Source: Candidatus Micrarchaeia archaeon (GTDB lineage Archaea > Micrarchaeota > Micrarchaeia > Anstonellales > Bilamarchaeaceae). Taken from it: a stretch of DNA of 64,000 nt. Under the pieces are notes generated by a model. That model was not told the origin of the DNA and did no database searches. It worked only from the letters and a program-made list of their open reading frames with translations. This document shows, one piece after another, positions 3,095 to 52,897 of the stretch (the stretch's first letter is position 1; every line of letters begins with the position of its first letter). A program made the translations under genes and the position numbers. The DNA lies in NCBI GenBank assembly GCA_050303335.1, contig JBNLBN010000002.1, forward strand, positions 4,856 to 68,855, read 5' to 3'.

Positions 3095-3180
3095 GCAGGG
3101 GTGGCAGAGCCTGGTCAAATGCGCTAGGTTGAGGGCCTAGTCGGTTAGTCCGTGCAAGAGTTCGAATCTCTTCCCCTGCA
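3095..3180 (+). tRNA. tRNA-Leu (anticodon GAG)
   Basis: This is an 86-nt class II tRNA. It has acceptor GCAGGGG/CCCCTGC, anticodon stem CTAGG/CCTAG with loop TTGAGGG, a long variable arm, and T arm AAGAG-TTCGAAT-CTCTT. Confidence 0.85.
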
Positions 3181-3288
3181 CTTTTACTCATATTCTACTA
3201 AGGTTAAAAGTGCCCAAAACTTCAGGAGGTTCTTGCATGTGTTTGGGGGAAGTTTTCAAACTTGTTTGATTTTCCTCCCCTGCATTTT
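3181..3288 (+). repeat. tRNA-Leu-linked ~100-nt conserved 3' module, copy 1, ending in a second copy of the tRNA 3' acceptor strand (CTCCCCTGCA)
   Basis: It is nearly identical to 4541..4650 (ACTAAGGTTAAAAGTGCCCAAAACTTCAGGAGGTTCTTGCATGTGTTTGGGGGAAGTTTTCAAACTTGTT). It contains inverted repeats AAAACTTC/GAAGTTTT and AAGTTT/AAACTT followed by a T-run. Confidence 0.8.
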
Positions 3289-3315
3289 AAGATTCTTTCT
3301 AAGAATCAATTACTC

Positions 3316-4125
3316 ATGTCTGATTCGCTGCTGCTTTCATTGCTGTTTTTTCTTGGTGTGCTGCTGCAGGCCTTTCTCCTCATATATGGTAAAAAAGTAA
3401 ACTACCTCCAAATCCTGATCGCTTTTGTGCTATCGCTGATTGCCTTTCTACCTGGAAAACGCGAGACAGTATACAATCTCTATCTCCATATACTGGTAGT
3501 TGCTGGATTCTTTTCTTTCTTTTTTGCTGCAATGTTCCAAAAGCAGATACTTCCAAGGATCAATGAACAGACAGTCCTTATTTTCACAGTCGTGCTCTGG
3601 TATGTCTTTATTGTTTATCTTTTCCTGCCAGTATGCATTCCACTGCTACTCATACCCACTTTTGCTACCCTCTACATCAGCTTTTCAAATGCTGAACTTG
3701 GCTACAAGTCCAGGATATTTTTCTATTCCTGGTTTCTTGTGATTGTTGTTGCACTTGCAGTCTCACAGTTCTCCTTCGGTACAATCTCGCTTTTTATGGG
3801 ACAGAAATTCGATGTGATCAATCCAATTGAAATGTTCTTTACAGGCATGGCTTTCCTGTATCTTGTATCTTATGTCTTCTATGTTTTCTACCTTATTCCA
3901 TTTCCAGGAAAAAGGCAAAGCATATCCGAAAGGATAGAGCAATGGAAGGAATATCTTGCCCTGCTGTCAAGCAAATATTCCACCGATCAGATGAACCCCA
4001 TCAATGCTGTTTTGATACTTCTTTCAGGCTTCGGCATTCTTTTCCTAAACCATTTCCTTGACCTTGTTTCGGATTATCTGATAATCAATGCCATGATTGT
4101 TTTATCGCAAATTCGGAAGAACTGA
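3316..4125 (+). CDS. polytopic membrane protein, unknown function
   Basis: The ORF is highly hydrophobic with multiple predicted TM segments. The start is moved to the ATG at 3316 (MSDSLLLSLLFF...) because the track start lies inside the repeat module. Confidence 0.6.
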   Translation: MSDSLLLSLLFFLGVLLQAFLLIYGKKVNYLQILIAFVLSLIAFLPGKRETVYNLYLHILVVAGFFSFFFAAMFQKQILPRINEQTVLIFTVVLWYVFIVYLFLPVCIPLLLIPTFATLYISFSNAELGYKSRIFFYSWFLVIVVALAVSQFSFGTISLFMGQKFDVINPIEMFFTGMAFLYLVSYVFYVFYLIPFPGKRQSISERIEQWKEYLALLSSKYSTDQMNPINAVLILLSGFGILFLNHFLDLVSDYLIINAMIVLSQIRKN

Positions 4126-4454: not shown

Positions 4455-4540
4455 GCAGAGGTGGCAGAGTTTGGTCAAATGCGCCAGATTCAGGGTCTGG
4501 TCGGTTAGTCCGTGCAAGAGTTCGAATCTCTTCCTCTGCA
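4455..4540 (+). tRNA. tRNA-Leu (anticodon CAG)
   Basis: This is an 86-nt class II tRNA. It has acceptor GCAGAGG/CCTCTGC and anticodon stem CCAGA/TCTGG with loop TTCAGGG. The variable and T arms are identical to those of the tRNA at 3095..3180. Confidence 0.85.
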
Positions 4541-4650
4541 CTTTTCCTCATACTCTACTAAGGTTAAAAGTGCCCAAAACTTCAGGAGGTTCTTGCATGT
4601 GTTTGGGGGAAGTTTTCAAACTTGTTCGATTTTTTTTCCTCTGCATTTTT
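4541..4650 (+). repeat. tRNA-Leu-linked ~100-nt conserved 3' module, copy 2, ending in a second copy of this tRNA's own 3' acceptor strand (TTCCTCTGCA)
   Basis: It is nearly identical to 3181..3288. The terminal 10-mer matches the acceptor variant of the adjacent tRNA (CCTCTGCA here, CCCCTGCA in copy 1). Confidence 0.8.
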
Positions 4651-4696: not shown

Positions 4697-7654
4697 TCAA
4701 TTCAGCATTTCGGAATACTGGTGGATCTTCTCCTTGGCATTAGCGCGCAGGAGATTCACCTGGTCGTTCCTATTACGGTTGACGATGCTCGGATCTGAAT
4801 TGTTCCAGCTGAGTTCCTCTCCGGCCCGCAGCCTTTTCATGTTTTCCAGAATCTCCTTCTGCACTTCGCCTTCCCTTGCAATCTGCGCTTTCCTGTATTC
4901 CTCAGCAAGGACCGCCCTCGCGGTCGAACTGTCACCCCTTCTAACAGCATCTTCGACTTCCTGCCTTGCATGCTGTGATGAAGCCTGCACCCTGTATGAC
5001 TGCGTCATGTCATCAGCTGCGCTGTAGCCAACCTTGTAGGCATCATCGGAAACGACACCGTTCTGGTGGCCGAGGTGGTTGACGCTCATGTCGATATAAC
5101 TGGAATTCTTGCTCTTAAGGTCGTCGAAGTTCTTCCACATGGACCTGTAATCCCCCTGGTCAAGGGCCTTAGCCATGCTGCTGCTTGATTCGTGCATGCT
5201 GTCTACCACTGTCGCCTCCCTCATCTTCTGCCTCAGGTCGTCGGGAAGCTTGTCATAAGAGCCATGGAGGAAAGGAAGCAGGTTGTTGTTATTGGTCAGG
5301 TTCTCACCCACAGTTATCGTCCTGCTTACTTCGGATAAATTGGAAGAGATTACTGCGTTTATCGTGGCGGATGTGACATTATGACCCTCAAGCTCTTTTA
5401 CGAATTCTGTTGTCTTTTGGGAAATCACATTTGCGGCTCCGGGCGTGATCGAGTCCCCGATTCTTGCTATGGTATCAGCATCCACACGGGATGCAGAAAG
5501 AACGGAAGAAATCTCCTTTTTCAGGTAATCTGCGTCCATGCTGGTCAGATCGGCATATCTAGTATTGGAAATCACGTAGTTGGTCGCGCTCTGGAACAGT
5601 TCCTTGTCAGGATCAGAGAGCTTCACTTGGGATGATACCTCTCTGGAAAGTGCGATGGATTCTCTGCCGGTATCCCCGAATACCTCGTTCGCCTCCTTTG
5701 CGAAGGTTCTGACTGCCTGTTCCGTGTCCCCGTATTTTTGCAGTATGTCCGGTCTTTTGTTTGGATCCTCTCCTGCAAGGAGTGCAATGGCCTGGTCCGA
5801 TGATTTTGTTTTGGCAGCAGCAATTATGGCATTGTATTCAGTCTGCTCTTTCACGTAATCCCTAACGTCCTCCCTCCTGTTGCTGAGCTCGTTGGAAAGG
5901 CTGGAATTCAGTTCTATTGAATTGAGTATCTCGACATTATGGTCATGTTCCTTTATGTATGCCGATGCATCGCTTCCGACGTCCATGTCAGAGTATATCT
6001 CCTTGAATTTCTGGTATGTGCCCAATACGAATGCCTGGTCCTGAATCACCCTGGCCTCGCCGTTTTGGGTTGCTGTCACCGATCCGTCTGCGTTCACGGT
6101 TATCACGGATGGCTCCTTCTCTCCCGGAAGGAGCATGTTATAGCTGATCTGAGTCACAGTTCCGTCCTTGTCCATTGTGACCTGGATGTTTCGGTATTCC
6201 GACTCAAAAGTTACTCCGTTTGCATCCGTGACCTCAGTCTTTCCGTCGTGGTATCCGTCCTTTCCGGCGTCAACTACTATGTCGAATGTCGTTTCCTTCA
6301 GGTTGCCGTTATCATCATATGTTCTTGTGCACTTTGTGATCTCTGCCCCGTTTGCCATGAGTCCCCCGTATTCGCCCTTCATCTCTATCGACAGGGCATC
6401 AAGGACTATCAGGTCGTTCTGGGTCCTGGCTTCGTGGTCTACCAGGAAATCATTGACAAGGTCTTTTTTCGTGGTTGCTTTGTAAATGTCGCCGATCATC
6501 TCCCCGATCGTGGATGATGCGAAGAAATACACTGCTATCTTTCCTGCGGTCATGAACGCTGCCTTGATACCAGTTTCCCCTTCGTCCGCCTTGACAATCA
6601 GGTCTGTAATACCGACACTACCAATCCCCCTCGCACCGCCGCTTCCACCAATCACCCTCCCATCCGGCCCGACAATCGGCCTGCTGGACTCTCCCCTTCC
6701 TCTAAGGGCGTCAGAAACAGAAGCGCCCTTCAGCCTGGATCCAGCCCTGCTTCGAATCGACATGGTTGTGAATCCTTTTTTAAGGGCGTTGATCTCCTTT
6801 CCGAAAATTATGTTCTCCTTGGCATTTTCGTTGTCTGCCCTTGCAATCTCCTTGAGCCCTTCAGAGAGTCCCTTGTCCGAGATGGTTTCTGCCGCACCGG
6901 CAATTGCCTTCGCTGCCCTGTAGACAGACCGGAAATCAAGGCTGTAGCCCCTCCCCCTTGCCTGATATCGCATGTGCTTTCCCATCCGCGTGCTTCCGAT
7001 GTTGAAGACTCCGAAAGGATTCACTCCGGTCATATAGAGTGCGCCGGCAAGAAGGGAAAATATAATGATAAGCGGAAGGCACATCGCAGGGGTTTTTGCG
7101 GATAATCCTGGCGGCTGGCAGTAGTTTACGACCTCCAGATTGGCAAGGAATTTCTCGCTGCTGTGCGGCATCGGAGGGACAGATCCCAGAGCATTCTCAA
7201 TGTCTCCCGCATCTTCGATTGCGAAGCTTCCCTGGTAAGCACCTGCAGAGCTGTTGATGCTCGCAAAACGGAGGCACTCGGCAAAACCGCACGCAGTCTC
7301 ATTTTCATCAGGATTGCAGAATGGGCAGTAGACTACCTTGAAGTTCATGCAGCCGTCGCTCCAGTCGTTGAAATTGAATTCCGCATGTCCCTCACCGTCA
7401 GTGTAAATCCTGTATACCCTGCTGAAGCCGCTGGAATTTGTCATCTCCACTATCAGGGTGCTGTCAGAAACAGGCATCCTTGAAGTCGACTGGCTGATAT
7501 TCTCATAGTACACGTTGGCCTCGAGGATGTAATTGTCCTTGTCAAGAAGGACAACCATGTTGGCCTGAGGCCTGTTTGCAAATTCCTCACAGGATATGCA
7601 TTCCTGCGCGGCTGATATGAATATCAGGAGAAGAAAGAGAAAAGCAAACCTCAT
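4697..7654 (-). CDS. 985-aa single-pass membrane protein: signal peptide, Cys-containing N-terminal ectodomain, one TM, ~770-aa C-terminal region; unknown family
   Basis: The start is moved to MRFAFLFLLLIFISAAQE (ATG at 7654), about 24 nt downstream of a minus-strand TATA (TTTAAATTT, 7674-7682). The TM segment is CLPLIIIFSLLAGALYMTGV, followed by a basic stretch (RMGKHMRYQARGRGY). I recognise no domain. Confidence 0.7.
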   Translation of the reverse strand: MRFAFLFLLLIFISAAQECISCEEFANRPQANMVVLLDKDNYILEANVYYENISQSTSRMPVSDSTLIVEMTNSSGFSRVYRIYTDGEGHAEFNFNDWSDGCMNFKVVYCPFCNPDENETACGFAECLRFASINSSAGAYQGSFAIEDAGDIENALGSVPPMPHSSEKFLANLEVVNYCQPPGLSAKTPAMCLPLIIIFSLLAGALYMTGVNPFGVFNIGSTRMGKHMRYQARGRGYSLDFRSVYRAAKAIAGAAETISDKGLSEGLKEIARADNENAKENIIFGKEINALKKGFTTMSIRSRAGSRLKGASVSDALRGRGESSRPIVGPDGRVIGGSGGARGIGSVGITDLIVKADEGETGIKAAFMTAGKIAVYFFASSTIGEMIGDIYKATTKKDLVNDFLVDHEARTQNDLIVLDALSIEMKGEYGGLMANGAEITKCTRTYDDNGNLKETTFDIVVDAGKDGYHDGKTEVTDANGVTFESEYRNIQVTMDKDGTVTQISYNMLLPGEKEPSVITVNADGSVTATQNGEARVIQDQAFVLGTYQKFKEIYSDMDVGSDASAYIKEHDHNVEILNSIELNSSLSNELSNRREDVRDYVKEQTEYNAIIAAAKTKSSDQAIALLAGEDPNKRPDILQKYGDTEQAVRTFAKEANEVFGDTGRESIALSREVSSQVKLSDPDKELFQSATNYVISNTRYADLTSMDADYLKKEISSVLSASRVDADTIARIGDSITPGAANVISQKTTEFVKELEGHNVTSATINAVISSNLSEVSRTITVGENLTNNNNLLPFLHGSYDKLPDDLRQKMREATVVDSMHESSSSMAKALDQGDYRSMWKNFDDLKSKNSSYIDMSVNHLGHQNGVVSDDAYKVGYSAADDMTQSYRVQASSQHARQEVEDAVRRGDSSTARAVLAEEYRKAQIAREGEVQKEILENMKRLRAGEELSWNNSDPSIVNRNRNDQVNLLRANAKEKIHQYSEMLN

Positions 7655-7795
7655 GCTAGAAATGGGGTGATGCAAATTTAAACATTTTCCATATTTCCTG
7701 TGAATTTGCACCGGAAAGGATCGCAACTTGATAAAAAAAATATATTTCAGGCGAAAAAAGTGCAGAGTTTAAATATATTTGCGTCAAATCATGTC
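7655..7795. promoter_or_regulatory. bidirectional promoter region with two divergent TATA boxes for leaderless transcripts
   Basis: The plus-strand TTTAAATATA (7768-7777) lies ~24 nt before the ATG at 7796. The minus-strand TTTAAATTT (7674-7682) lies ~24 nt before the ATG at 7654. Confidence 0.5.
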
Positions 7796-8992
7796 ATGCT
7801 TTATCGGGCAATGCTAATTTTTTCCATCCTATCAGAATTTTGCTTTGCTGCAATCGCTCCGGTTGATCTGCAGCCTGCAGTGCCTATAGTGGTTTTCATA
7901 GTTGCCATATTCCTGATCCTCTTGAATCTCGCATCAACAACCCTCAGCCAGCCAAGGCTCAAGAGCTGGGTCAAGATTGAGTTCAGGGAGCTTGTGGCAG
8001 GTATCATCATAATCGTCGCGGTCACATCAGCACTCATCGGATCCAACACGCTGAGTTCGATCCTGACAGGAAGCAATGATTATGTCGGTGTTTCACAGGG
8101 GATCATCGATGAATGGCTCTCAAACTACGACACGGCAAACCAATACATAATAATCACAGCCACAAAGATCCGTTCCGGATCGACCTATTCTCCACATGTC
8201 AATGTCCCAATCTATTGGGTGTCAGTAAGCTATTCCTCCAATCCGCTTGGCGGAATGAACATCCTGCTTATAGGCCTCAACATCGCCGCGCATGCGCTTT
8301 CAAACGTCACATTCATTTACGAGGGCCTGCGCGTCCTCGTGCTCTACTTTAAGATCGTAATCCCCAAGATACTTCTTCCCCTTGCCTTCATAATGCGGGT
8401 GATACCATTTACCAGGAGCACTGGCAATACGTTGATAGCTCTTGCCGTCTCATCAATCGTCTTCCTGCCATTATCAATAATACTCGCAGATGCGCTAAAC
8501 GACCGGATGGGCGACGATTTCCCGAATCCGGTAATAGCAAATACCGGAGTGTTCGATGCTGATCCGTGGGGCATGGTTGCCGGAGAGATTATGTGCGGAT
8601 CCGAAGTGACCCGGGGGCTGCTTTCGCTTGGGGAGCAGCTTTTCTCGATGATCGTCTGCCTGCCATTCATCGTCTTCGGATACCAGGCATGCGTCGATAT
8701 GACAAAGAACATCATCTACCCGATAATGATGATGGCGGTCCAGCTTGGAATGGGTGGAGGGCTTGCGGCATGGACCGGAAAATTCATGGGAGAGATCTAT
8801 CTATCTGACGGAGGGTATGTCGGACACGCGTTCGATGCATTATACCTGTTCCTGGGAGAGGTAAACGATCTCGTACTGATAGGATACCTTGATTTCATAC
8901 TGATTGCAATAATAACAATATCTTCTGCAAGAAGCATATCCACAATGCTTGGGGGCCAGTGGTACATGGCCGGAATCCAGAGGCTGATATGA
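7796..8992 (+). CDS. envelope-locus paralog P1 (polytopic membrane protein, unknown family)
   Basis: It carries the family loop motif LPLAFIMRVIPFTRSTGNTLIALAVSSIVFLP and the C-terminal tail STMLGGQWYMAGIQRLI. The start is revised to the ATG at 7796 from TATA spacing. Confidence 0.7.
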   Translation: MLYRAMLIFSILSEFCFAAIAPVDLQPAVPIVVFIVAIFLILLNLASTTLSQPRLKSWVKIEFRELVAGIIIIVAVTSALIGSNTLSSILTGSNDYVGVSQGIIDEWLSNYDTANQYIIITATKIRSGSTYSPHVNVPIYWVSVSYSSNPLGGMNILLIGLNIAAHALSNVTFIYEGLRVLVLYFKIVIPKILLPLAFIMRVIPFTRSTGNTLIALAVSSIVFLPLSIILADALNDRMGDDFPNPVIANTGVFDADPWGMVAGEIMCGSEVTRGLLSLGEQLFSMIVCLPFIVFGYQACVDMTKNIIYPIMMMAVQLGMGGGLAAWTGKFMGEIYLSDGGYVGHAFDALYLFLGEVNDLVLIGYLDFILIAIITISSARSISTMLGGQWYMAGIQRLI

Positions 8993-9984
8993 TGAAGGCA
9001 TACCTGCTGCTCCTGCTTCTTTCCGCCTCGTCCTTCGCGTGCATTTCCAACGCGACTGACATTGTCATGAGCGAGCAGGGAACAAACATCATGATCATAC
9101 TCTCGCTGACAACAATAGTGATAGCCATTGCATACATGGTGGGATCGGTGCTCCAGAAGCCGGAATACAGCGTATATGCAAAGGACGAGATGTATCACCT
9201 GGGTTTCTCCGTCCTTCTCCTTGTCTCATTCAGCGGGATTCTTGTCTTTTCCTGCTTCCTGATGGATTTTTTCTACACATCGTTTTTCCAGGAATCCGGA
9301 ATGTTCGGAGAAGCAGGGATGGAATCAAGATGCTACATGGACGGCCTCGGGATGAACGAGGTCGCTTCATGCTATGCCGAAGCAGTCTCTGATGATGCGC
9401 AGGCAGTTTCCGAAAGCTACATAGATGGATACGTGGACCAGCTGATGAGCTCCACATTCTCATGGAGCTTCCAGATCCCGCTTGTAAATTCCCTCACATC
9501 AACTGGCGGCGCATTCAGGAGGGTGGTCTCGAACCAGTATGACATTATCCTTAATACATTCCTCGTCCCGGCAATGGTAAGCATCAGCATGCAGAAGATC
9601 GCAATTGATTTCATTTCCGAAAACGTAATACAGTGGATACTGCCGATAGGATTCCTGCTCCGGTTCTTCATGCTGACCAGGGAAATGGGAAACATAGTCA
9701 TTGCGCTTTCCTTTGGGCTCTACATACTGGTTCCATTCCTGTATGTATTCAACTTCGCCATGTACGAGGGAGTACTTGTAGACTGCTATCAATTCGTTAA
9801 CGAGGTCTGCGACAACGTATTCGACAGCTACTGCCAGCCCCCCCAGGTAGCATGCACCAATATACAGGGATTCTGGAACGTCGGAAGGCTGATACCAATG
9901 GCATTTTTCCTTCCGAATCTGACTATAGCACTTTTCGTGACATTTCTTGCGGCCGTAAATAAGGCCCTTCGGGTGGTTGGATGA
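8989..9984 (+). CDS. envelope-locus paralog P2 (signal peptide + polytopic membrane protein)
   Basis: It has the signal-like N-terminus MMKAYLLLLLLSASSFACISNA and the motif LPIGFLLRFFMLTREMGNIVIALSFGLYILVP. Its ATG overlaps the P1 stop. Confidence 0.7.
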   Translation: MMKAYLLLLLLSASSFACISNATDIVMSEQGTNIMIILSLTTIVIAIAYMVGSVLQKPEYSVYAKDEMYHLGFSVLLLVSFSGILVFSCFLMDFFYTSFFQESGMFGEAGMESRCYMDGLGMNEVASCYAEAVSDDAQAVSESYIDGYVDQLMSSTFSWSFQIPLVNSLTSTGGAFRRVVSNQYDIILNTFLVPAMVSISMQKIAIDFISENVIQWILPIGFLLRFFMLTREMGNIVIALSFGLYILVPFLYVFNFAMYEGVLVDCYQFVNEVCDNVFDSYCQPPQVACTNIQGFWNVGRLIPMAFFLPNLTIALFVTFLAAVNKALRVVG

Positions 9985-12041
9985 AAAGACTGTTCATACT
10001 CCTGCTTTTATTTTCAATTTCTCTGGCATCCAACTCCGCGGGGCAGTTCGAGGATGCAACAGGCGGTTCGCCGCTTGAACTCGTTTCGGACTGGAGGGTT
10101 ATAGCGATCCTTTCGATCGTCTTTTCAGCCATCCTTGTTGCTATTGCATATGCAGCCGGAATCGGATTCGAGATGCCTGAAATCAAGGCATGGGCAGGTA
10201 TCGAACTGACGCAGATATTCGTAAACGCGATCATCATCGTTTCACTTCTCGCGGTCATCTCATTCCTTGACGCCCTCGTTGTCGGAATGGTCTACAGCAG
10301 CGGGCTGGAGATCAACGAATGCACGGGGTTCGGTCAGCAGGAATACGAAACATGCCTTCAGGCAGTTGCGATTGAATATCTTGAGGACTATGAAACCACT
10401 CTGAAAAGCTCCATGAGGAATATCCTGATCGAAAACGTCAAGGCAGTAAATCTCATGAACACGCGCGTAGGCGCTTACTGTACCGGAGTGATATGCGGAC
10501 AGATAGGAATCAGCCATACTATTGCCGCGGAAAATACTCTGGATGTAGACAGGAACACTATACTATTCGAATATTACACAAACCTGCTAAGCTTTCTCAG
10601 GAGCCAACTGTTCTTCGTAAACAATGTATCGTTCAAGATGGGCCCTGTAATACTCGCTGTCGGAATTGTTGCAAGGTCTTTCTTCATGACAAGGAAGCTC
10701 GGAGGCCTACTGATAGCAATATCCTTTGGAATTATATTTTTCCTTCCCGGGATGTACCTTTTCGACTGGGCCACGATGGACATGTTCGTTAACGGCGACA
10801 AGGCGCTGGATGCGGCAGCCTCCTCATGCCCGTCGGAATGTACGAAAAAGGCTCCGCTGGCATACTACTATGACGGAGGGGACCTCATGCTCATCGAGGA
10901 TCCGACGGAACTGCGGCAGATGTTCCTTCCGGAGGATGTCGGTAAGGCTAGCGGCATATACGACGGCTCGATAGCCAGCGCTCCGGGAACGAACGGTTCG
11001 GCACAGGACAGGACGATATTCTCCTGCAGGTCTGATGCCAATACAACTTTCTGTCCTGAGGTGTGCAGGGCCCTTCCCTATCCGTCCATTCCGAACTGCG
11101 CGGATTTTATCACCCAGATCTCGTGCTCACTGGTCCCGAAGGAATGCAAAGTGATAAAGCTCGTGGAGGAACCTGTGCAGAACAGCAAGTGCCCGGATTC
11201 ATGCAAGATAATCCCTCCGCTTCGATCAGACTGCAATACTGGCCCATGCCTGCTTTCAAGCATTGACTGCCGTCTCACCGTGCGCTCGAACACCAACTGG
11301 CGCCCGTCCGTCAGCGATGAAGTGGATTCTGACAAGAAGGCATTCTGCGACCTTGCGCAATATTGCGAGGCAAATTACAATGCAAACCTTTCATGCGTCT
11401 ACGTGATGCCAGTTACCGGACCATGCGATGGCGAGGGGAGCGTCTGCCAGGGCTGTCCTGCACAATGCCGTGTGACCGGAGGGAATCCAGCGAACATGCC
11501 GCCGGAATGCCAGCTCTATGCGCTCTCATGCTCTCTTTGCCATGAAACATGCAAAGTCGACATATCCGACATAAGCTCCCTTAATGCCCAGCCGCCATCC
11601 TGCATGGGCTGTCCGCTGGAACGGAGGCTGATGGGCCCCGACCTTCCGGAGGAATACAGCCTGGACCTGGCGGCCGAGGGCGGATACCAGTGTTCATTCA
11701 GTTCCTGCCCCGCGCAATACCGGGCATTTCTGCCCAGAAGCTCCTGCGAGGAATGCCTATTTACCGAAGAATCCGAAACATACAGCCCGGCAATCAACAA
11801 CCAGTGCGATGAATCCTGCAAGCCTACCATATCAGCGCATATAAAGGACCCTGATTCCTACTCGACCGTCGGAGGAGACGGTCTCGTGGGGAAACCGGAC
11901 ATACAGTCGCTTTCAAAGATGATGCTTCCTATCTACGTACTGCCGCTCTTCAATTTCGTTGCTACAATCGTTTTCATTAAAGGCCTGTCAAAAATGCTTG
12001 GAGGGGATATTGAAATCCCGGGGATCTCGAAGGTGTTCTGA
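9981..12041 (+). CDS. envelope-locus paralog P3 with ~350-aa cysteine-rich ectodomain insertion
   Basis: It has signal MKRLFILLLLFSISLASNSA, motif VGIVARSFFMTRKLGGLLIAISFGIIFFLP, and tail LSKMLGGDIEIPGISKVF. About 32 Cys (my count) lie between the motif and the last TM. It overlaps P2 by 4 nt. Confidence 0.75.
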   Translation: MKRLFILLLLFSISLASNSAGQFEDATGGSPLELVSDWRVIAILSIVFSAILVAIAYAAGIGFEMPEIKAWAGIELTQIFVNAIIIVSLLAVISFLDALVVGMVYSSGLEINECTGFGQQEYETCLQAVAIEYLEDYETTLKSSMRNILIENVKAVNLMNTRVGAYCTGVICGQIGISHTIAAENTLDVDRNTILFEYYTNLLSFLRSQLFFVNNVSFKMGPVILAVGIVARSFFMTRKLGGLLIAISFGIIFFLPGMYLFDWATMDMFVNGDKALDAAASSCPSECTKKAPLAYYYDGGDLMLIEDPTELRQMFLPEDVGKASGIYDGSIASAPGTNGSAQDRTIFSCRSDANTTFCPEVCRALPYPSIPNCADFITQISCSLVPKECKVIKLVEEPVQNSKCPDSCKIIPPLRSDCNTGPCLLSSIDCRLTVRSNTNWRPSVSDEVDSDKKAFCDLAQYCEANYNANLSCVYVMPVTGPCDGEGSVCQGCPAQCRVTGGNPANMPPECQLYALSCSLCHETCKVDISDISSLNAQPPSCMGCPLERRLMGPDLPEEYSLDLAAEGGYQCSFSSCPAQYRAFLPRSSCEECLFTEESETYSPAINNQCDESCKPTISAHIKDPDSYSTVGGDGLVGKPDIQSLSKMMLPIYVLPLFNFVATIVFIKGLSKMLGGDIEIPGISKVF

Positions 12042-13084
12042 TGAGAAGACTGGTATTTCTTGTACTGCTGATGTCTGTTGCTTCTGCCGCTTCATGGCAG
12101 GAGGTCACTTTCATTTCGATTTCAGTATCCGCATTCCTAATTGCAAGCGTCTTTATGATAGGTTTCGGTTTCGGAATATCAAGCCTCCAGATGATGGCCC
12201 GGGAGGAATTCTTCCAGCTGATCGCGATGGCAGTGCTGGTGGTGCTGCTTCTTGGTGCCGACGGGATTCTGAACGGCATTTCAGGGGTATTCTCGCCTTC
12301 AACCTCACTGCAGCAGCTTTCCCTGAACATCCTCTCGGAAGACAAGGCTTCAGTATCGCTCCTGATAAGCCAAATCGGGATTTTCGACCTTGGGGTCTCC
12401 AAGGAGGCATCAAGGACCAGCCAGTGCAGCATGATGTATACAGGTTACTCGGTAAGCGGTTGCGGAGGATACGCGATGCTTGCGCCCCAGCTCTCGATGG
12501 CAGGAGGAATCGCCGGATTCGCTCTTGCAGAACTGAGTGCTGCAGAGAGGCTGATACAGATCGCAAATTCATATTCCCTCGGCATGCTGCTTCCTATCGG
12601 TATAATCCTGAGGACTTTCAAGATAACGCGCGGTGCCGGCGGATTCCTTATAGCGCTCGGAATATCATTATACCTCCTTCTTCCGGTAGGGATCGTGTTC
12701 AATGAAATGCTTGTTGAAACCTTCAGGCAGTCTGATGATCCGAGGGTGGTTGATTATACCATGCCTGCTTTCAGCGCAAGCGTGGTGCCGTGCAATCCTG
12801 GTGATGCAACTCCGCCTCCATTCGGGGTCGATCTCTTCGGTGAGATCGGAAGCGCTATAGGAGGCGATCTGGGGCTCCTTCTCGGATCAGATACGAATGA
12901 GGAACGAGCGATAGGAACATATGGCGTGATGAGGCTCAATACAAGGAACAAGATGATGACGATGCTACTGGAAGCGACATTCGGGCCGATAATCGGGCTC
13001 CTTCTTGTCGTTTCAGGGATAAGGACGCTGACATTGATTGCGGGATCAGACGTAGATGTAAGTGCTTTGGCGAGGTTTGTCTGA
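12041..13084 (+). CDS. envelope-locus paralog P4
   Basis: It has signal MRRLVFLVLLMSVASAAS, motif LPIGIILRTFKITRGAGGFLIALGISLYLLLP, and tail LIAGSDVDVSALARFV. It overlaps P3 by 1 nt. Confidence 0.75.
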   Translation: MRRLVFLVLLMSVASAASWQEVTFISISVSAFLIASVFMIGFGFGISSLQMMAREEFFQLIAMAVLVVLLLGADGILNGISGVFSPSTSLQQLSLNILSEDKASVSLLISQIGIFDLGVSKEASRTSQCSMMYTGYSVSGCGGYAMLAPQLSMAGGIAGFALAELSAAERLIQIANSYSLGMLLPIGIILRTFKITRGAGGFLIALGISLYLLLPVGIVFNEMLVETFRQSDDPRVVDYTMPAFSASVVPCNPGDATPPPFGVDLFGEIGSAIGGDLGLLLGSDTNEERAIGTYGVMRLNTRNKMMTMLLEATFGPIIGLLLVVSGIRTLTLIAGSDVDVSALARFV

Positions 13085-14157
13085 TGGTCGATGCCGTGAT
13101 ATGCACCCCTGTTTTTGAAAATTTCATGAACAATACGATAGTCCCGCTCGTCCTGTTCTCTTCAATAGCCACTTCGGCACTGATAGCGCTTTCATACATG
13201 GTCGGCAATGCGATCTCTAATGCGAAGCTCACTTTCTGGGCCAAGACCGAGGCAGTGCAGATAGTGATATCAGCTATGTCTATCGTGTTCATCTTGGCAA
13301 CCGTGAACGGCTTCTGCTCCATCAACATGGGGGAGCTCTCATCATTCTTCACTGACATCGACACTCCCCAGGACCTGAATCTCTTCGATGCAGCGCAGGA
13401 ATACCTCCGGGAGACAATGCTATACTCCCATAATGCGATGACCGCGGTCAGGTATCACCTGGAGGGGTACACCGTGCTCTCTTTCCTGAATTCATTCTCA
13501 TGTGATTTCAAGCTGGGCCCGATCGGCCTTGGATGCCTGCACGGATATTCCGGAACATCCGGGCTTCCGGTCGGAGGATACGGGGCAATTATAGCAGCCC
13601 TCAATATATTCTTCAATTCCACTATCATGTCCTATTTCTCGGCTATGAATTACCTGTTCATCCTTCTGTTCGTCTACAAGGGATTCGTTTTCCTTTTCCT
13701 TCCTGTTGGCATATTCGTGAGGTCCTTGCCCTACCTCCGTTCCTTCGGCTCGGTTCTGATCGCAATAGCACTCTCGTTCCTGCTCGTATTCCCGTTCATG
13801 CTGAGCATCTTCTATCTGATGGGAGATGTCCTCCTTGACCGCGGGAACAATTACGAGCCGCAGGTGGGGAATCCTCCGATGAACAGCTTTTATTATGAAA
13901 AAAGATATCCTGATAATGAATACGCCTCAATCGGGACCAGCATCGCAGGAGAAGAGCTTGGAGTATGGATAACAAGGCAGCTCTATTTCCCTTCAGGTGA
14001 GAATCCAGGAGGGGCGATAATATTTGCAGCCTACGCATTCCTTGCAGCAGTGTTCATGCCTACTGCAGCACTGATTGCGACCATAGCAAGCGTCTCTTAC
14101 ATTTCAAGGCTTTACGGCGAGGAGATAGATCTCTCAAGAATAACCATGATGGTGTGA
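13084..14157 (+). CDS. envelope-locus paralog P5
   Basis: It has motif LPVGIFVRSLPYLRSFGSVLIAIALSFLLVFP and tail SRLYGEEIDLSRITMMV. It overlaps P4 by 1 nt. Confidence 0.75.
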   Translation: MVDAVICTPVFENFMNNTIVPLVLFSSIATSALIALSYMVGNAISNAKLTFWAKTEAVQIVISAMSIVFILATVNGFCSINMGELSSFFTDIDTPQDLNLFDAAQEYLRETMLYSHNAMTAVRYHLEGYTVLSFLNSFSCDFKLGPIGLGCLHGYSGTSGLPVGGYGAIIAALNIFFNSTIMSYFSAMNYLFILLFVYKGFVFLFLPVGIFVRSLPYLRSFGSVLIAIALSFLLVFPFMLSIFYLMGDVLLDRGNNYEPQVGNPPMNSFYYEKRYPDNEYASIGTSIAGEELGVWITRQLYFPSGENPGGAIIFAAYAFLAAVFMPTAALIATIASVSYISRLYGEEIDLSRITMMV

Positions 14158-14160
14158 ACT

Positions 14161-15192
14161 ATGCTTACGATACAAAGTTTTTTCGGGGATATGACTGGAT
14201 TGCAGTGGTCCGGCATCTGGCTTCCTCTAGTGATACTTGCAGTATTTACATCGATAATGTTCTACAACATCCTGCTGATGATCGGCAAGGCATTCTCGCT
14301 TCGCGAAGTGGAACGGTTCGCGAAATCCGAGATGCTCCAGGCACTATCCACCGCATTCATGGCATCGTTCCTGGTCATGCTGGTTGGCGGAGCGATGGAA
14401 CTGACCGGACAGTTTCTGCATGGCGAATTTGCATGCGGCGATGATGTCATTCACATATCGAGCCTTGATGACGGCCAGTCGACAATGGAGAATGTTTTCG
14501 ATGCAATAAGGTGCAGGCTTCAGTCGAGGGCAAAGGAAGTTGCAAGGATCCAGGGCGCACTGGTCGGAGGCCTCGGCCCTGCAAATGAATTCAACCTTCT
14601 CAATACTGCGCTAAGCAGTTTCGGCATCACGTTCTTCAAGGGAGACTGGGTCGGCGAACTTTACCGCGCAGTCGAGACAAAAAGGATCGCTAACAATCTT
14701 GCAACCGTGCTTCTTATCGGCCTTAACGCACAGTCCGACGTCCTCCAGTATATCAAGATTAATTCCCTGAATGTCCTTCTTCCGCTTGGCATCCTTCTCA
14801 GGAGCTTCTATTTCACAAGAAGCGTCGGCGCACTCTTCATTTCAATCGCAGTCGGGATGTTCTTCATATTCCCGGTATTCTTCATCCTTCTCGATCCTGG
14901 ATTCACGGCATCAGCACCCCCTCCGTCTTTTGCAGGGGCCCAGCAGGAAACATTCTGCTATGCTACAATGAAGAACACGATCTCGATGGTCGATGCAATT
15001 TCGCAGCTTAGCGCCGCCGGACCAAACCTCGGGATGGAACAGCTTGAAGAGGACCTGACTAAGTCATACATCTCCCTGATCATCCATCCGCTCGTTTCAT
15101 TCTTCCTGACAATGGTTTTCATAAGGTACATGATGGTGCTTCTTGGAGGCGACAGCACGGAAATAACCCGAATGGTGACAAAGGTGGTCTGA
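14161..15192 (+). CDS. envelope-locus paralog P6
   Basis: It has motif LPLGILLRSFYFTRSVGALFISIAVGMFFIFP and tail MVLLGGDSTEITRMVTKVV. A 3-nt gap separates it from P5. Confidence 0.75.
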   Translation: MLTIQSFFGDMTGLQWSGIWLPLVILAVFTSIMFYNILLMIGKAFSLREVERFAKSEMLQALSTAFMASFLVMLVGGAMELTGQFLHGEFACGDDVIHISSLDDGQSTMENVFDAIRCRLQSRAKEVARIQGALVGGLGPANEFNLLNTALSSFGITFFKGDWVGELYRAVETKRIANNLATVLLIGLNAQSDVLQYIKINSLNVLLPLGILLRSFYFTRSVGALFISIAVGMFFIFPVFFILLDPGFTASAPPPSFAGAQQETFCYATMKNTISMVDAISQLSAAGPNLGMEQLEEDLTKSYISLIIHPLVSFFLTMVFIRYMMVLLGGDSTEITRMVTKVV

Positions 15193-18100
15193 TGAGATTA
15201 TTGCTATTGATGATTCTGTTGGTGTTTGCCGGATGCCTGGCCCCGGTCGAGAAGCTCGGCTGCTGCCAGAAGGAAAACATCAGCGAAGGCTGCGTACTCT
15301 ATAATACCTCTGACTTTACCAGTATCGACATGACTGGCCAGACTGTTGCACAGTCATGCGACAATCCGGATATGGATACCGAGGGATACTGCAATGTCTC
15401 GGTAAACAATAACTACCGGCTGATCCCAATATGCACCCAGGAGGATATTGTCGAATGTGTTGATCCTGGATGCACTGCGATGGTATGCGGAGATTTCTCA
15501 TACAAGCCGAGGATTTCGCCCGTAGTAACTGATGATGAGGATCTTAGCAGCGCGACACCCACTGATTCTGATGACAGTGCGACAATCCAGTTCTACAAGT
15601 CGCAGTGCCGGTTCCTTCCGATGGATGTCGACCTGCGCCAGATCATGAAGAATTCCAAATCATCGATAAACGTCTTCCGCGTTGGGATAGGTGGTTCGTT
15701 CGACGAATACGACCAGTACAGGTATTATTTCCCGATGGCAGACGAGTTCTGCAGCGCAGCAATCTCCGGAGGATTCTCAGGAACTGTAGATCGGTATATG
15801 AATTACCTGGACCTGGCGGACAAATCGGTGTTCGATCCGGATGAAATCACAGAGAACTGCTTTGATGACGACAGCGTGCAGGGCCCATACATGAACCAGG
15901 AATCTCCGGCACTGAATCTTCCGGGGTATTACGGACTGTTCACCATCTCTACCGTGGAACCTGAAAAGAACAACTACAAGTTCGTCCATTTCATCAACTA
16001 TGACTTCACTCCGGTCTGGACACAGGATCTCCTCAAAGGGGCAGGTTATCAGTACATCCCCGGTTTCATAAACGGCCACAGCCTTTACAAGGAAATCGAC
16101 AAGGACTTCTACAAAAGGGAACTGTCCATTGCACATGCGAGTTCCATCTATGATATCGATGGCACGGGAAGCACAAGAGCACCGTTCGAATGCTCCATGT
16201 CGGAAAATAACTGCCTCTCAGGAAGCTGCAACAGTGATTTCTACAACCGCGGGGTGTTCGTCGATGCAGACAACAACAATGATATCGTGACCGACTGCAC
16301 CAGGATGAAGGACGAAAACGGAAACCAGCGGATCATATGCCTTCCAACAATAGCAGGTTCCATTGCCGAGTCAGATGATGGCAGCCCGCCTTCAAGGGAA
16401 TATTCAGATGTGACTGCAAAGGTTACGCATATTGAGATCAGCACTGTCGGTAACATGGATTTCACATACGAGGATTTCATTGATCCAGAGGCTGATCCGA
16501 AGATGATCGATTACTGGGATGCATGGGGGCTCTATCTCGAGCCGCTGGTCGACAGGTATGGCAATCCGCATTATGTATCAAGTTCTTCGAAAGTCCTGAC
16601 AAACGTTCCAACAGGAATATCACACTACTATTCGATTGAATATGTCTATGATGACGAGGGCCATTACCAATATTCCTACTACAAGCTGAATCAGGGCTTC
16701 TATTCCGGAAGCTACGGGCCTCCGGCAGGCGGTGCGGTGTTCTTCGGGAAAATCAGCGATGAGCCTATGAGGTACGGAGACGGTGAAGTGATTGGCTATG
16801 CTATGGGAGACGATTTCGATGAGACGCTTCTTGCCCAGAACTGCGAGCTTGAAGAGAACGAGGATTATGTAGTAGTGAGCCTCGGATCGCCGACCAACTG
16901 GCAGAGCTCCGGGATGATGTCTCTTTTCAGGCCATACTATGAGGATGTCCTCAAAAGCTACAAGACCTATGGTTTCGAGGAAGGCTGCGGGGATAAAATG
17001 CTTGCAACGGATTCAGTGGTTGCTTCGATGCCATGGGTGATAGCTTTTGAAAAAGGCGGACTTTCGGGGGGCCCTCTCAACACCGACTTAAGGTACAGGT
17101 TCACAGACTATCCCAATGCCTACTGGATGGCATCCACTCCGGCTTTCGGAGCATTTGCAAACAACGTGTACGATGAATATATGTACCGTTTACTCGATGC
17201 GGGAAGCTGCAGCCTCAGGATGAGCCGCTATGACTCTCCCTTGTCTAATGATTACTACAATATAGTGTACCCAAATAACTTTGTCCTACTGATCAACAAG
17301 GGCGATGACAGGTTTGGAAGATGCTCACTCGACAGGTCGACTATGTTCCCTGAGCTCAGGACATTCGGCTGGTGCGAGCCGTGCTCCACCTCCACACTCG
17401 CGTACCAGGAGATTTCCACTACCCCCAGGCCTTATCTTCCGGGCTATAAGATGAAACTGGATCCAGGGGCAACCACTTTCGAACCCCAGATCTGCTGGTC
17501 CCAGTACGAATCACACTGGGATTTCGATTTTTCATCCCAGCCGTCATTCAACCTTACAGACAACGTGACATGCTACAATCCATCAATTCCTGACATCAGT
17601 GATTACAAGGGAAGCATTGGAAACATAGGTTCTCCAAGGACCATACCTGAAGCAAGCGTTATGAAGAAGAGGCTCGGAAACTACCTCCGTTCCGGAGTCC
17701 TGCCGGTCCTTGATCTGACGGACGAATCAAACTGGAACATCACCAATCCGGATGCTGAAAGCGTCGGGTGGGACCTCTTCCAGCTGTTCTACGACACGAG
17801 CCCGGAGGACTATTCCCAGTATGACTTTGAAAGGCTGATAGGGAGGATGGGCGCTGCAGTAATAATCGTGGATACCGTATCAGAATATGATGTACAGTTC
17901 AAGGTTTCGAGAATTATCGACCGGGCATCGATAATCAAGCAGAAATGCTTCGGCTGCATCACCGCATTCCATGTTCAGAGCCCGCCCGACAATGAAAGTT
18001 TCAATTATACAATTAACAGCGTCCTGAGCAATCCAACAGCCCAGCGCGTGATAGAGATGGTCACTTTCGACTATCCTATCTCCGAGCACGGTTTCAGCGA

Positions 18101-19013
18101 GCCTGAGGATGTGCTCAGCGACATATCGTCATTCGGCCAGACCTCCCTCTCAAGCAAGGCAAAGCCTGTCATGGTGGTCGGGCTCAATGTACGCAGCGAT
18201 GACGAGCGATGGGAGGGCCGCTATGAGGATCTTTTTGAAAAAATCCTGATGGGCCAGGACGACCTTGTGAGGAACGGCGTTGTCGGAATCATCTACTCTC
18301 CTGCAAGGTCGGCTGCATCAGCAGAAGGGATAATTGACACATCCAGCGATCCTTCATTAGGCCTGAAAACGGAAAAATTCTGCGCGCTCCAGGGAGCAAT
18401 GGAAAAGATGACCGCAACAACTCCAACGACGATCTTCTCGAAGGTGCTTGTACAGGAGGAGAACCAGTGCGTGCCCTGCACTCCGTGGGATTATCTTTCG
18501 GGCGGGGTCTGCAGCGATACCCTCTCAAGTACGCAAAGGCACATATGCGACGGCGGCGGTTCATGCACACTCCCTCCGGGAATTGCCGAGACGGACGATG
18601 AGAAATACAAGTGCCTTGAAGGGACAGTAACAATGGACTGCAGCCTTTGCACCGATTCCTTGCTGGATTTCAGCTGCATCTACACATATGCAAACGGGTC
18701 TTCAAGATCCTATCCCTCATCAGCAACACTGCCCCTCTCGGATCTTAGTTCAGATATATATCTGGATATTATTGCAAGCCTTCCGAAGCCTTATAAGTGC
18801 TGCCTGATGGATGAAGGAAGCGGTCTCAAGTATACCTACCGGAAGGACACATATCAAAGCCCCATCAACAAGCCGGTAGTATTTCCCAAGAACGGAGGGG
18901 ATGTCGATTGCGGATCAGGAGTCGATCTGGAAGATCTTGGTGAATCGAGCACCTTCTGCGGTCTCCAGCAGTCTCCGATAAGGGACTATGCCATCAACTG
19001 CGAAATCAGCTGA
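15192..19013 (+). CDS. 1273-aa cysteine-rich secreted protein, putative lipoprotein (lipobox-like VFAGC); unknown family
   Basis: The N-terminus MRLLLLMILLVFAGCLAP resembles a signal peptide plus lipobox. Cys clusters occur at both ends (GCCQKE..., CVPCTPWDYLSGGVCSD...CDGGGSC...). It overlaps P6 by 1 nt. I recognise no domain. Confidence 0.75.
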   Translation: MRLLLLMILLVFAGCLAPVEKLGCCQKENISEGCVLYNTSDFTSIDMTGQTVAQSCDNPDMDTEGYCNVSVNNNYRLIPICTQEDIVECVDPGCTAMVCGDFSYKPRISPVVTDDEDLSSATPTDSDDSATIQFYKSQCRFLPMDVDLRQIMKNSKSSINVFRVGIGGSFDEYDQYRYYFPMADEFCSAAISGGFSGTVDRYMNYLDLADKSVFDPDEITENCFDDDSVQGPYMNQESPALNLPGYYGLFTISTVEPEKNNYKFVHFINYDFTPVWTQDLLKGAGYQYIPGFINGHSLYKEIDKDFYKRELSIAHASSIYDIDGTGSTRAPFECSMSENNCLSGSCNSDFYNRGVFVDADNNNDIVTDCTRMKDENGNQRIICLPTIAGSIAESDDGSPPSREYSDVTAKVTHIEISTVGNMDFTYEDFIDPEADPKMIDYWDAWGLYLEPLVDRYGNPHYVSSSSKVLTNVPTGISHYYSIEYVYDDEGHYQYSYYKLNQGFYSGSYGPPAGGAVFFGKISDEPMRYGDGEVIGYAMGDDFDETLLAQNCELEENEDYVVVSLGSPTNWQSSGMMSLFRPYYEDVLKSYKTYGFEEGCGDKMLATDSVVASMPWVIAFEKGGLSGGPLNTDLRYRFTDYPNAYWMASTPAFGAFANNVYDEYMYRLLDAGSCSLRMSRYDSPLSNDYYNIVYPNNFVLLINKGDDRFGRCSLDRSTMFPELRTFGWCEPCSTSTLAYQEISTTPRPYLPGYKMKLDPGATTFEPQICWSQYESHWDFDFSSQPSFNLTDNVTCYNPSIPDISDYKGSIGNIGSPRTIPEASVMKKRLGNYLRSGVLPVLDLTDESNWNITNPDAESVGWDLFQLFYDTSPEDYSQYDFERLIGRMGAAVIIVDTVSEYDVQFKVSRIIDRASIIKQKCFGCITAFHVQSPPDNESFNYTINSVLSNPTAQRVIEMVTFDYPISEHGFSEPEDVLSDISSFGQTSLSSKAKPVMVVGLNVRSDDERWEGRYEDLFEKILMGQDDLVRNGVVGIIYSPARSAASAEGIIDTSSDPSLGLKTEKFCALQGAMEKMTATTPTTIFSKVLVQEENQCVPCTPWDYLSGGVCSDTLSSTQRHICDGGGSCTLPPGIAETDDEKYKCLEGTVTMDCSLCTDSLLDFSCIYTYANGSSRSYPSSATLPLSDLSSDIYLDIIASLPKPYKCCLMDEGSGLKYTYRKDTYQSPINKPVVFPKNGGDVDCGSGVDLEDLGESSTFCGLQQSPIRDYAINCEIS

Positions 19014-19569
19014 ATTTTCCCTCGAAGACAATCTCATCAAGTGGCTTCCTGCCAGTGATCTGTTCCTTTTCCCGGATTCCTTCGGGCAGGTCATCCGGAT
19101 TTCCAGGCTTCCCGATCGCGATCATGCAGTGGATCTCATGGTCCTGCGGAAGTCCGATCACCTGCACAGCCTTAACATAATCGAATCCTTCCATTGCATG
19201 GGCTATCAGGCCCCTGCTGTGAGCCTCTAGCGCAAGGTTTTCCCATGCGGCCCCTGCATCGAAGGCATGGGTCCTTGAAGGCTTTCCGTTATATTCGAAC
19301 TTCCTGCTTGAGGTAACGATCACAAGCGCAGCGGCATTCCCCGCCCATCTCCTGTTGAAGTCGCCCATCAGTCCAAAGAAGGAATCCCAGTATCCGCTTC
19401 CCCGCAGCGCATAAACGAATCTCCATGGCTGGTTGTTGAAGGATGAGGGCGCCCATCTTGCAGCTTCGAAGAGAGCCATGATCTCGTCTTTTGCGACATT
19501 TCCATCAAGGGCCCTCGGTGAATGCCTGTTAAGGATCAAATCACTGATCTGATAATTCGGTTTTCTCAT
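19006..19569 (-). CDS. nitroreductase family protein
   Basis: The segments LNRHSPRAL, ARWAPSSFNNQPWRFVY and the C-terminal IAIGKPG are typical of the FMN nitroreductase fold. Confidence 0.8.
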   Translation of the reverse strand: MRKPNYQISDLILNRHSPRALDGNVAKDEIMALFEAARWAPSSFNNQPWRFVYALRGSGYWDSFFGLMGDFNRRWAGNAAALVIVTSSRKFEYNGKPSRTHAFDAGAAWENLALEAHSRGLIAHAMEGFDYVKAVQVIGLPQDHEIHCMIAIGKPGNPDDLPEGIREKEQITGRKPLDEIVFEGKFS

Positions 19570-19653
19570 AAAATGGTACTCGATGTAAATTCCTATAAGG
19601 TTTTTTCCAAATCGACCAAAAGTTTTTTATATAAAATTACAATAATACCTGTA

Positions 19654-31180: not shown

Positions 31181-31240
31181 ATTAGAATTCTTATGGCAAA
31201 TATTAAAATACTGAACGCATTCTTTTGAATAGGTGAAAAA

Positions 31241-51362: not shown

Positions 51363-52897
<1,535 letters not shown>

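Follow-up and report, generated by a model that had tools for sequence, protein, structure and literature searches.

VirB6 of the type IV secretion systems (T4SS) has its N-terminus outside the cell, five transmembrane helices (TM), a large outside loop and its C-terminus inside (PMC6120205). Host-dependent Rickettsia carry five duplicated VirB6 genes, with their T4SS genes scattered over the genome (PMC2653234), and Patescibacteria need a chromosomal T4SS in order to grow as epibionts (PMC12102498). In the Ced and Ted systems, the components of one have no recognisable sequence similarity to those of the other, and the ATPase gene may stand a few genes away from the pilin and channel genes; the two illustrate how far the membrane parts of archaeal T4SS derivatives can diverge, until no sequence similarity is recognised (PMC9905601). 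Mce modules contain six genes whose domains are ~17% identical and whose products enter a heterohexamer in one copy each; the MCE systems are believed to use one ATPase, MceG, in common (PMC9882608). Here we describe an array of six tandem genes, P1 to P6, in a 64-kb stretch of DNA from a Candidatus Micrarchaeia archaeon (contig JBNLBN010000002.1), the whole of which is called the window below. The array encodes six paralogous membrane proteins and forms a unit of eight genes together with its neighbours Big and Up (Table 1). DPANN archaea depend on hosts, and most of these abundant organisms have not been cultured; their attachment to the host and their supply with lipids, nucleotides or DNA have yet to be explained.

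Six paralogous membrane proteins in a fixed array

The original prediction, made from the window alone, held that the six consecutive membrane proteins are paralogs that share a basic loop motif and a C-terminal tail motif. In BLASTP, 15 of 15 pairs among P1 to P6 matched colinearly, with 22-36% identity in the BLAST segments. Smith-Waterman alignments were compared with shuffles preserving local composition (20-aa window), and all 15 pairs scored above the shuffles with z = 6.5-15.4. Comparison of the six ortholog-group profiles by hhalign gave probabilities of 97.1-99.8% and E-values from 7e-11 to 2.5e-27. With pairwise identities this low, a chance compositional likeness of hydrophobic helices without paralogy might be considered; it is refuted by the shuffle and profile comparisons, the same invariant Glu, Arg, Arg, Gly and Pro positions recur in distant clusters, and we give it next to no probability. 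P1 to P6 are true paralogs, as had been proposed.

One R-x5-R-x2-G loop is present in each of the six proteins (from P1 to P6: RVIPFTRSTG, RFFMLTREMG, RSFFMTRKLG, RTFKITRGAG, RSLPYLRSFG and RSFYFTRSVG), which confirms the shared basic motif. The predicted LGG[DE]-type tail closes five of the six, and P2 ends instead in NKALRVVG, again as originally stated. In a six-way MAFFT alignment, the invariant columns besides M1 were E62, L194, R201, R207, G210, I214 and P225 (P1 numbering), and the outside loops were strongly divergent between paralogs. Across 17 sequences from three cluster types, the distant one included, the E, R, R, G and P were still invariant, with the Pro sitting in TM4. The invariant Glu belongs to a W-A-K-x-E motif before TM2 that the original prediction had overlooked, as it had the unit of eight genes, its specificity to one DPANN phylum and the VirB4/CedB-like ATPase in sister clusters.

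HMMER was run exhaustively against 1.84 billion representatives and recovered 2,879 clusters (50% identity) with E ≤ 1e-3, of which 1,962 reached E ≤ 1e-10; homologs were 236-1683 aa long among the 150 matches listed. For nearly all named homologs the family is restricted to Micrarchaeota-labelled genomes, the labels being Candidatus Micrarchaeota, Micrarchaeia, Bilamarchaeaceae or Bilamarchaeum, the last of which is placed by NCBI in Nanobdellati (DPANN), phylum Microcaldota. The exceptions are three matches from two metagenome-assembled genomes (MAGs) labelled "Candidatus ainarchaeum sp.", possibly Iainarchaeum, one genome locus titled only "archaeon" and one partial protein labelled "bacterium".

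Exactly six tandem members were found in 31 of 33 genome-derived loci, and the remaining two end at contig ends. The size order along these arrays is about 400/335/700/330/360/345 aa. Over 35 genome loci the best match of each position was the same position, with one mis-called open reading frame (ORF) as the sole exception, and 76 further metagenome loci carried the six-gene string in the same order wherever the contig was long enough. Even the most distant cluster type (type C) keeps positions 2-6. More than 60 loci, genome and metagenome, were long enough to inform the count of exactly six, and no expansion, loss or shuffling of the six was seen among them; the few apparent five-member metagenome arrays may be ORF-calling fusions. 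The question raised with the original prediction, whether the family always occurs in multi-copy tandem arrays, is thus answered by six members in fixed order in these loci. Its proposal of an ancient tandem duplication is strongly supported by the position-specific orthology across the 35 genome loci and by the same six-gene string in the 76 metagenome loci.

At all junctions between the P1 to P6 genes, stop and start codons overlap by 1-4 nt (ATGA or TGATG) or are separated by a 3-nt gap. The P1 start at ATG 7796 is backed by a TATA-like tttaaatata ~24 nt upstream and by ortholog N-termini. One MAG, GCA_022627495.1, contains two complete eight-gene units on different contigs and none that is partial; their P4 orthologs are 44% and 36% identical to P4 of the window, and the pair could stem from whole-unit duplication or a mixed bin.

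The divergence of the outside loops between paralogs, and the prediction of each monomer as a self-contained helical bundle, would agree with six proteins that work independently, as channels, sensors or receptors adapted to different ligands, and are merely neighbours. However, independent paralogs normally vary in copy number, and none of the informative loci does; the genes are translationally coupled, it is the whole cluster and not single genes that appears to have been duplicated, and no output domain is present. We consider independent proteins very improbable. Because six diverged paralogs are strictly kept in order, with translational coupling and whole-unit duplication, a hetero-oligomer is expected instead, most likely with one copy of each subunit per complex. 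The hetero-oligomer of the original prediction is well motivated by the 1:1:1:1:1:1 retention, the fixed order and the coupled junctions, although these lead us to infer it rather than demonstrate it.

Partner genes and predicted architecture

Big lies behind P6 in every type-A and type-B locus. Its orthologs share an invariant G14-C15 and more than 25 invariant Cys, and their length is steady at ~1250-1300 aa in type-A loci, reaching 1410 aa in the rearranged clusters. Big had no Pfam or PDB match, also when searched as a profile, and a Pfam scan of 10 Big orthologs was likewise empty. An identity of Big as an S-layer protein of the SLP_Mh type was rejected on composition, given its 40 Cys and the lack of a Pfam S-layer domain; SLP_Mh possesses S-layer domains and hardly any sulfur-containing residues (bioRxiv 10.1101/2021.04.28.441871).

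The N-terminal part of Up consists of a signal/anchor, an ectodomain of ~160 aa with 6 Cys and a TM near residues 208-238 of the 1009-aa ORF. Conservation is confined to the N-terminal ~270 aa, and the length ranges from 860 to 1566 aa. The remaining tail of ~770 aa is poorly conserved; since it is Cys-poor, K/R-rich and variable in length, it is probably cytoplasmic. Up had no match in Pfam, NCBIfam or the PDB. In rearranged (type-B) clusters, found at four loci and several metagenome loci, an Up homolog (hmmsearch E 1e-17 to 1e-23) stands downstream of Big on the same strand. Up therefore belongs to the unit, and the set of six paralogs, Big and Up is conserved independently of gene order.

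In the window, Up and P1 diverge from a common intergenic region. TATA-like boxes at 7674-7683 on the minus strand (aaatttaaac, for Up) and at 7768-7779 on the plus strand (tttaaatatatt, for P1) each lie ~24-25 nt from the respective ATG. Read by archaeal promoter architecture, this spacing would make both transcripts leaderless or near-leaderless. A PadR-family regulator gene, which may be a regulator of the cluster, was observed directly beyond Up in four type-A loci and one type-B locus, and is not at the corresponding position in the window.

Hydropathy and charge give each subunit an N-terminus outside, five TM and a C-terminus inside. TM1 is followed by a 10-residue basic inside loop, TM2, an outside region of ~90-135 aa and TM3; then come the basic R-x5-R-x2-G inside loop, TM4, a second outside region of 36-382 aa, TM5 and a short inside tail. 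P1 to P4 have a signal-like h-region at the N-terminus, ahead of TM1. Over ~190 orthologs, predicted inside segments contained 15.3 K+R, 0.06 Cys and 0.10 N-x-S/T sequons per 100 residues, compared with 5.7, 3.71 and 0.68, respectively, for predicted outside segments, supporting a cytoplasmic basic loop by the positive-inside rule, a check proposed with the original prediction. One long homolog carries an N-terminal CARDB adhesion domain, in agreement with an outside N-terminus.

AlphaFold2 models were obtained for P1 (38 sequences; predicted local distance difference test score, pLDDT, 85.3; predicted template modelling score, pTM, 0.70) and P4 (65 sequences; pLDDT 88.5; pTM 0.81). Both models share an architecture in which helices of 30-50 residues prolong the TM helices outward as a bundle, together with one beta-hairpin. 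In P4 the elements are helices 19-44, 47-84 and 90-123, the hairpin 127-138, and helices 142-192, 197-229 and 286-333; the invariant residues C129 and C141 stand on either side of the hairpin. At positions 2, 3, 4 and 6 of the array, TM3 is only weakly hydrophobic in its outer half (Kyte-Doolittle 0.16-0.88), whereas at positions 1 and 5 this half is hydrophobic, which suggests burial at interfaces or a pore and subunits that are not equivalent. Invariant outside Cys number three each in P1, P4 and P6 and five in P2. These odd numbers make them candidates for inter-subunit disulfides, which the leftover Cys would allow. Position 3 is the size-variable subunit, with 394-1683 aa in other clusters, and 34 Cys columns of P3 are conserved at ≥94% among 32 orthologs.

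Such large, disulfide-rich outside parts (40 Cys in Big, 32 in the P3 insert) and the adhesion domain of one homolog raise the possibility of a passive envelope scaffold or adhesion complex, an S-layer anchor or host docking site that neither transports nor uses an ATPase. For the Micrarchaeon S-layer protein no membrane anchor has been identified, and a stalk made by another protein was proposed (bioRxiv 10.1101/2021.04.28.441871); in ARM-1, crescent-shaped densities join the S-layer to the membrane, and a 21-nm barrel, as yet unassigned, is described as a docking platform (PMC11329633). The type-A cluster has no ATPase, and the top-ranked, non-significant fold matches of the subunits are TTYH proteins, which form trans-dimers between membranes. 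However, the invariant residues lie on the cytoplasmic face and not outside, sister clusters are operonic with a translocation-type ATPase, and six distinct polytopic subunits are many for a mere anchor; Big also differs from the known S-layer protein in its 40 Cys and its lack of an S-layer domain. A passive scaffold is possible, in our judgement, but doubtful.

The same outside parts could instead form the disulfide-rich outer tower, made of the P3 insert, Big and the Up ectodomain, of a novel cell-cell conduit. By means of its hetero-hexameric large pore of 30 TM, Micrarchaeota would attach to host cells or host nanotubes and trade cytoplasmic material with them, and the conduit would be evolutionarily unrelated to the membrane parts of T4SS. 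One possible place for it is within the barrel-shaped docking platform of ARM-1 seen by cryo-electron tomography (PMC11329633). We consider a conduit of this kind unlikely.

Sister clusters and comparison with translocation systems

P1 to P6 had no Pfam or NCBIfam match at E ≤ 1, and the family profile matched no PDB sequence; the possibility raised with the original prediction, that a known transporter or secretion family would appear among the matches, was thus checked in Pfam, NCBIfam and the PDB, and none did. Foldseek searches of the P1 and P4 models against the PDB returned nothing at E ≤ 1e-3, and P4 had no significant match among viral structures. TTYH1-3 (Tweety) was the top-ranked Foldseek match of both models (E 0.012 for P1 and 0.072 for P4, template modelling score 0.16-0.21, not significant). 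TTYH proteins have a five-TM topology with an extracellular domain; they share five TM with the subunits, and differ in being homodimers and eukaryotic. With E-values of 0.012-0.07 and a template modelling score of ~0.2 we treat Tweety as a resemblance only, which may be convergent, and no Pfam Tweety match was found among P1 to P6.

A provirus or mobile element was also considered and rejected. PADLOC and PHROGs gave only two marginal matches (E 0.003-0.006) across the eight proteins, no relative of the family was present in IMG/VR viral contigs, and the genes around the array are of a chromosomal, housekeeping type. The window is archaeal chromosome, with an archaeal 16S rRNA gene, ribosomal protein genes, rpoD, HMG-CoA reductase and ABCE1. 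The literature searched does not describe this family or cluster. The eight proteins fall outside the described families, and the six-fold array has not been reported; as Pfam and NCBIfam cover none of the eight, the family deserves models of its own.

In sister (type-C) clusters, found at four loci and further partial ones, the array again counts six members, of which the one at position 3 is short, and Big and Up are absent. Positions 2-6 map onto positions 2-6 of the window. Behind the array, on the same strand, are two paralogous proteins (X, a 2-TM hairpin with a ~200-aa domain), a 514-aa P-loop ATPase, a coiled-coil protein (Y) whose C-terminus we read as like a winged helix-turn-helix, and an 806-aa anchored protein. 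An array with this gene string behind it was found in at least 10 type-C loci; the string lies, for example, at 13015-20306 of locus L096, and it is also present in seven other loci. X, Y, the 806-aa protein and the type-C membrane proteins had no Pfam or NCBIfam match, and the gene string looks like an undescribed archaeal T4SS/Ced-like system of its own. The ATPase matched DUF87, AAA_10, P-loop_TraG and TrwB_AAD_bind in Pfam. Among NCBIfam models it scored best with CedB and CedD, then with VirB4-type conjugation ATPases and then with HerA, and in the PDB it aligned with a VirB4-like protein over 275 residues. By sequence it is an ATPase of the VirB4/CedB/HerA type; since its NCBIfam scores (68-85 bits) are all far below the trusted cut-offs (700 for CedB), it is not an ortholog of CedB. 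At one type-B locus, L034, the X-ATPase-Y trio lies ~3-6 kb from the array.

The reading we favour, to which we give an even chance, is that the P1-P6 unit forms a hetero-oligomer that serves a Ced/T4SS-like translocon as its platform or channel in the membrane; we are more confident of the hetero-oligomer than of the motor and the substrate. It draws on the ATPase of the sister clusters, and its precedents are Mce, the best documented for a hetero-oligomer, VirB6 with its Rickettsia copies RvhB6, Ced/Ted and the T4SS of Patescibacteria. P1 to P6 would be six ancient, non-interchangeable subunits of one hetero-oligomer in the cytoplasmic membrane. A single promoter would serve their genes, with translational coupling that extends to the lipoprotein gene Big. 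Outside the membrane, TM2 to TM5 would continue for 25-30 residues as a bundle of helices, with a beta-hairpin clamped by a disulfide at its tip. Towards the cytoplasm, the subunits would present a common charged constellation, comprising the Glu before TM2, the two Arg and the Gly of the TM3-TM4 loop and, usually, the acidic LGGD tail. Up would be the eighth component, its small Cys-containing ectodomain joining the outside part and its long variable tail reaching the cytoplasm. In this scheme, an apparatus spanning the envelope may exchange macromolecules, for instance DNA, with a host or neighbour upon contact. The complex would be its channel or platform in the membrane and do the work of VirB6/CedA in T4SS-derived systems, and a VirB4/CedB-type ATPase whose gene lies elsewhere in the genome would drive it. 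The data show the paralogy, the topology statistics, the fixed array of six, the eight-gene unit, its restriction to Micrarchaeota-labelled genomes and the ATPase linkage of the sister clusters; the assembly itself, its stoichiometry, the use of an ATPase by type A and the substrate are what we infer.

The subunits resemble VirB6 in topology, from the outside N-terminus through five TM and a large outside loop to the inside C-terminus (PMC6120205), and in size, with 342 aa in TrwI compared with 331-357 aa in P2 and P4 to P6. With RvhB6a-e of Rickettsia they have in common the duplicated copies and the confinement of conservation to a short TM-cytoplasmic stretch between divergent flanks. They differ from both in having six copies with strict positional orthology, in the absence of other VirB proteins, in whose place a Cys-rich lipoprotein and a bitopic partner are found, and in being archaeal. 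Homology to VirB6 was tested by hhalign with the family and each ortholog group against seven MPF_T VirB6 sequences and rejected, the probabilities of 0.1-0.4% being no higher than the 0.5% of a Na+/H+ exchanger control. We therefore propose that the unit works like a VirB6, not that it is one. The likeness to Ced lies in the ATPase beside the sister arrays, which ranks CedB and CedD first. In contrast, CedA is a single gene with 6-7 TM, no CedA1/TedC-like pilin was recognised, the window cluster is without an ATPase, and the window proteins had no NCBIfam match to CedA, CedA1 or CedB.

Several observations weigh against a T4SS-like translocon. P1 to P6 have no homology to VirB6, TrbL or CedA in Pfam and NCBIfam (nothing at E ≤ 1; the TrbL/VirB6 domain is PF04610, COG3704), and no VirB6/T4SS chain appeared among the 50 Foldseek matches listed per model, the presence of R388 TrwI in the library being unchecked. 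No pilin-like or relaxase-like gene is found in the cluster. No ATPase, X or Y homolog was found in the 64-kb window or within ~10 kb of ~45 type-A loci, so that the ATPase link rests on the sister clusters, and these type-C loci are metagenome contigs without assigned taxonomy. At 5684-13410 of locus L057, a type-A array with Big converges with the end of a second array (a 341-aa family member and a 274-aa X-type 2-TM protein). This places two systems in one genome, and the type-A and X-linked arrays may be separate systems of different function. Finally, the invariant residues are few and could have a purely structural role.

The comparison with Mce bears on a further explanation, a hetero-hexameric tunnel through the pseudo-periplasm that takes up lipids or metabolites from the host, driven by a shared ATPase encoded elsewhere or by gradients. 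Mce likewise has six tandem paralogs in conserved order, an organisational analogy only, in organisms that feed on a host; the precedent of a heterohexamer with a shared ATPase (PMC9882608) extends to sequence divergence, the identities among P1 to P6 being comparable. Cultured Micrarchaeota do not synthesise lipids, nucleotides or amino acids, and their transporters are few (PMC8975820), and the long outward helices of the models could make a tube. However, Mce proteins are bacterial and ABC-driven, and consist of a single TM, an MCE beta-barrel and a long helix, a fold unrelated to the all-helical, polytopic fold found here. Pfam and NCBIfam detected no MCE/MlaD domain in P1 to P6 and no YrbE-like permease, and sister clusters are linked with a VirB4/CedB/HerA-type ATPase instead of an ABC protein. 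An uptake tunnel seems to us distinctly unlikely.

If the ATPase link of the favoured translocon holds, the unit is a strongly divergent variant of the VirB4-powered envelope translocons; if not, it represents an archaeal envelope complex of a new kind. As a phylum-wide gene unit of strictly conserved composition, with no annotation, a clear topology and confident monomer models, it is a concrete candidate for the missing envelope and host-interaction machinery, comparable to the T4SS of Patescibacteria (PMC12102498). Six membrane paralogs fixed in order and number are a rare case, useful for the evolution of hetero-oligomers from homo-oligomers (compare Mce and RvhB6). Existing co-cultures of Micrarchaeota offer a test ground, if those organisms carry the cluster.

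Features and surroundings of the array

Table 1. Coordinates of the eight-gene unit and its signatures in the window.
Feature	Position	Strand	Description	Basis
P1-P6 array	7796-15192	+	six co-directional ORFs, translationally coupled	peptides match those quoted in the original prediction
P1	7796-8992	+	position-1 paralog, 398 aa, most divergent of the six	ORF call, alignment, orthology, hhalign
P2	8989-9984	+	position-2 paralog, 331 aa, without LGGD tail	ORF call, alignment, orthology, hhalign
P3	9981-12041	+	position-3 paralog, 686 aa, Cys-rich insert in TM4-TM5 outside loop	
P3 insert	10773-11915	+	Cys-rich, ~380 aa, TM4-TM5 outside loop	32 Cys in loop
P4	12041-13084	+	position-4 paralog, 347 aa, most consensus-like	AlphaFold2 model
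P5	13084-14157	+	position-5 paralog, 357 aa	ORF call, alignment, orthology, hhalign
P6	14161-15192	+	position-6 paralog, 343 aa	ORF call, alignment, orthology, hhalign
Signature loop R-x5-R-x2-G, P4	12611-12640	+	RTFKITRGAG, between TM3 and TM4, predicted cytoplasmic	invariance, sidedness statistics
R-x5-R-x2-G loops, other subunits	P1 8396-8425, P2 9661-9690, P3 10674-10703, P5 13720-13749, P6 14800-14829	+		
Second signature [W/Y/M/F]-[A/V]-[K/G/R]-x-E, P4	12194-12208	+	MAREE; last residue is the invariant Glu, where TM2 begins on the cytoplasmic side	
Second signature, other subunits	P1 7967-7981, P2 9175-9189, P3 10191-10205, P5 13237-13251, P6 14317-14331	+		
Up	4697-7654	-	bitopic protein, 985 aa (ATG at 7654)	ORF call; TATA-like box ~25 nt upstream
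Divergent promoter region Up/P1	7655-7795		141 bp, two TATA-like boxes	read from sequence
Big	15192-19013	+	Cys-rich extracellular protein, 1273 aa, lipobox-like N-terminus (LVFAG-C15)	40 Cys; ATG overlaps P6 stop codon

Beyond Up, other genomes have PadR, an AAA_18 kinase-like gene and ScpB in place of a stretch of the window that contains two tRNA-Leu genes (3095-3181 and 4455-4541, plus strand; 87 nt each; anticodons GAG and CAG) on both sides of a 287-aa ORF (3262-4125). This ORF has no Pfam match, and only the second tRNA-Leu passes the Rfam gathering threshold. Further ORFs of 179-706 aa without a Pfam match lie on the minus strand at 32411-34531, 31604-32350, 30728-31267 and 42144-43175. 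The 16S rRNA gene (51363-52898, plus strand) has an ArsR-type regulator upstream and is followed by a nucleotidyltransferase ORF (52976-53647); no 23S rRNA gene comes after it, and the rRNA genes are unlinked.

Three genes of the Na+/H+ exchanger family lie within 22 kb, at 20699-22132 (plus), 38739-39935 (minus) and 40985-42133 (plus). Five close paralogs of 595, 304, 597, 536 and 473 aa, 49-75% identical, are located on the minus strand at 44379-50474 and 35528-36949. They contain internal repeats of ~42 aa with weak Ank_2/FAN1_TPR matches in Pfam and may be a recently expanding repeat-protein family; four of the five are in tandem, in a stretch of low GC content (0.41) and strongly negative GC skew (-0.33).

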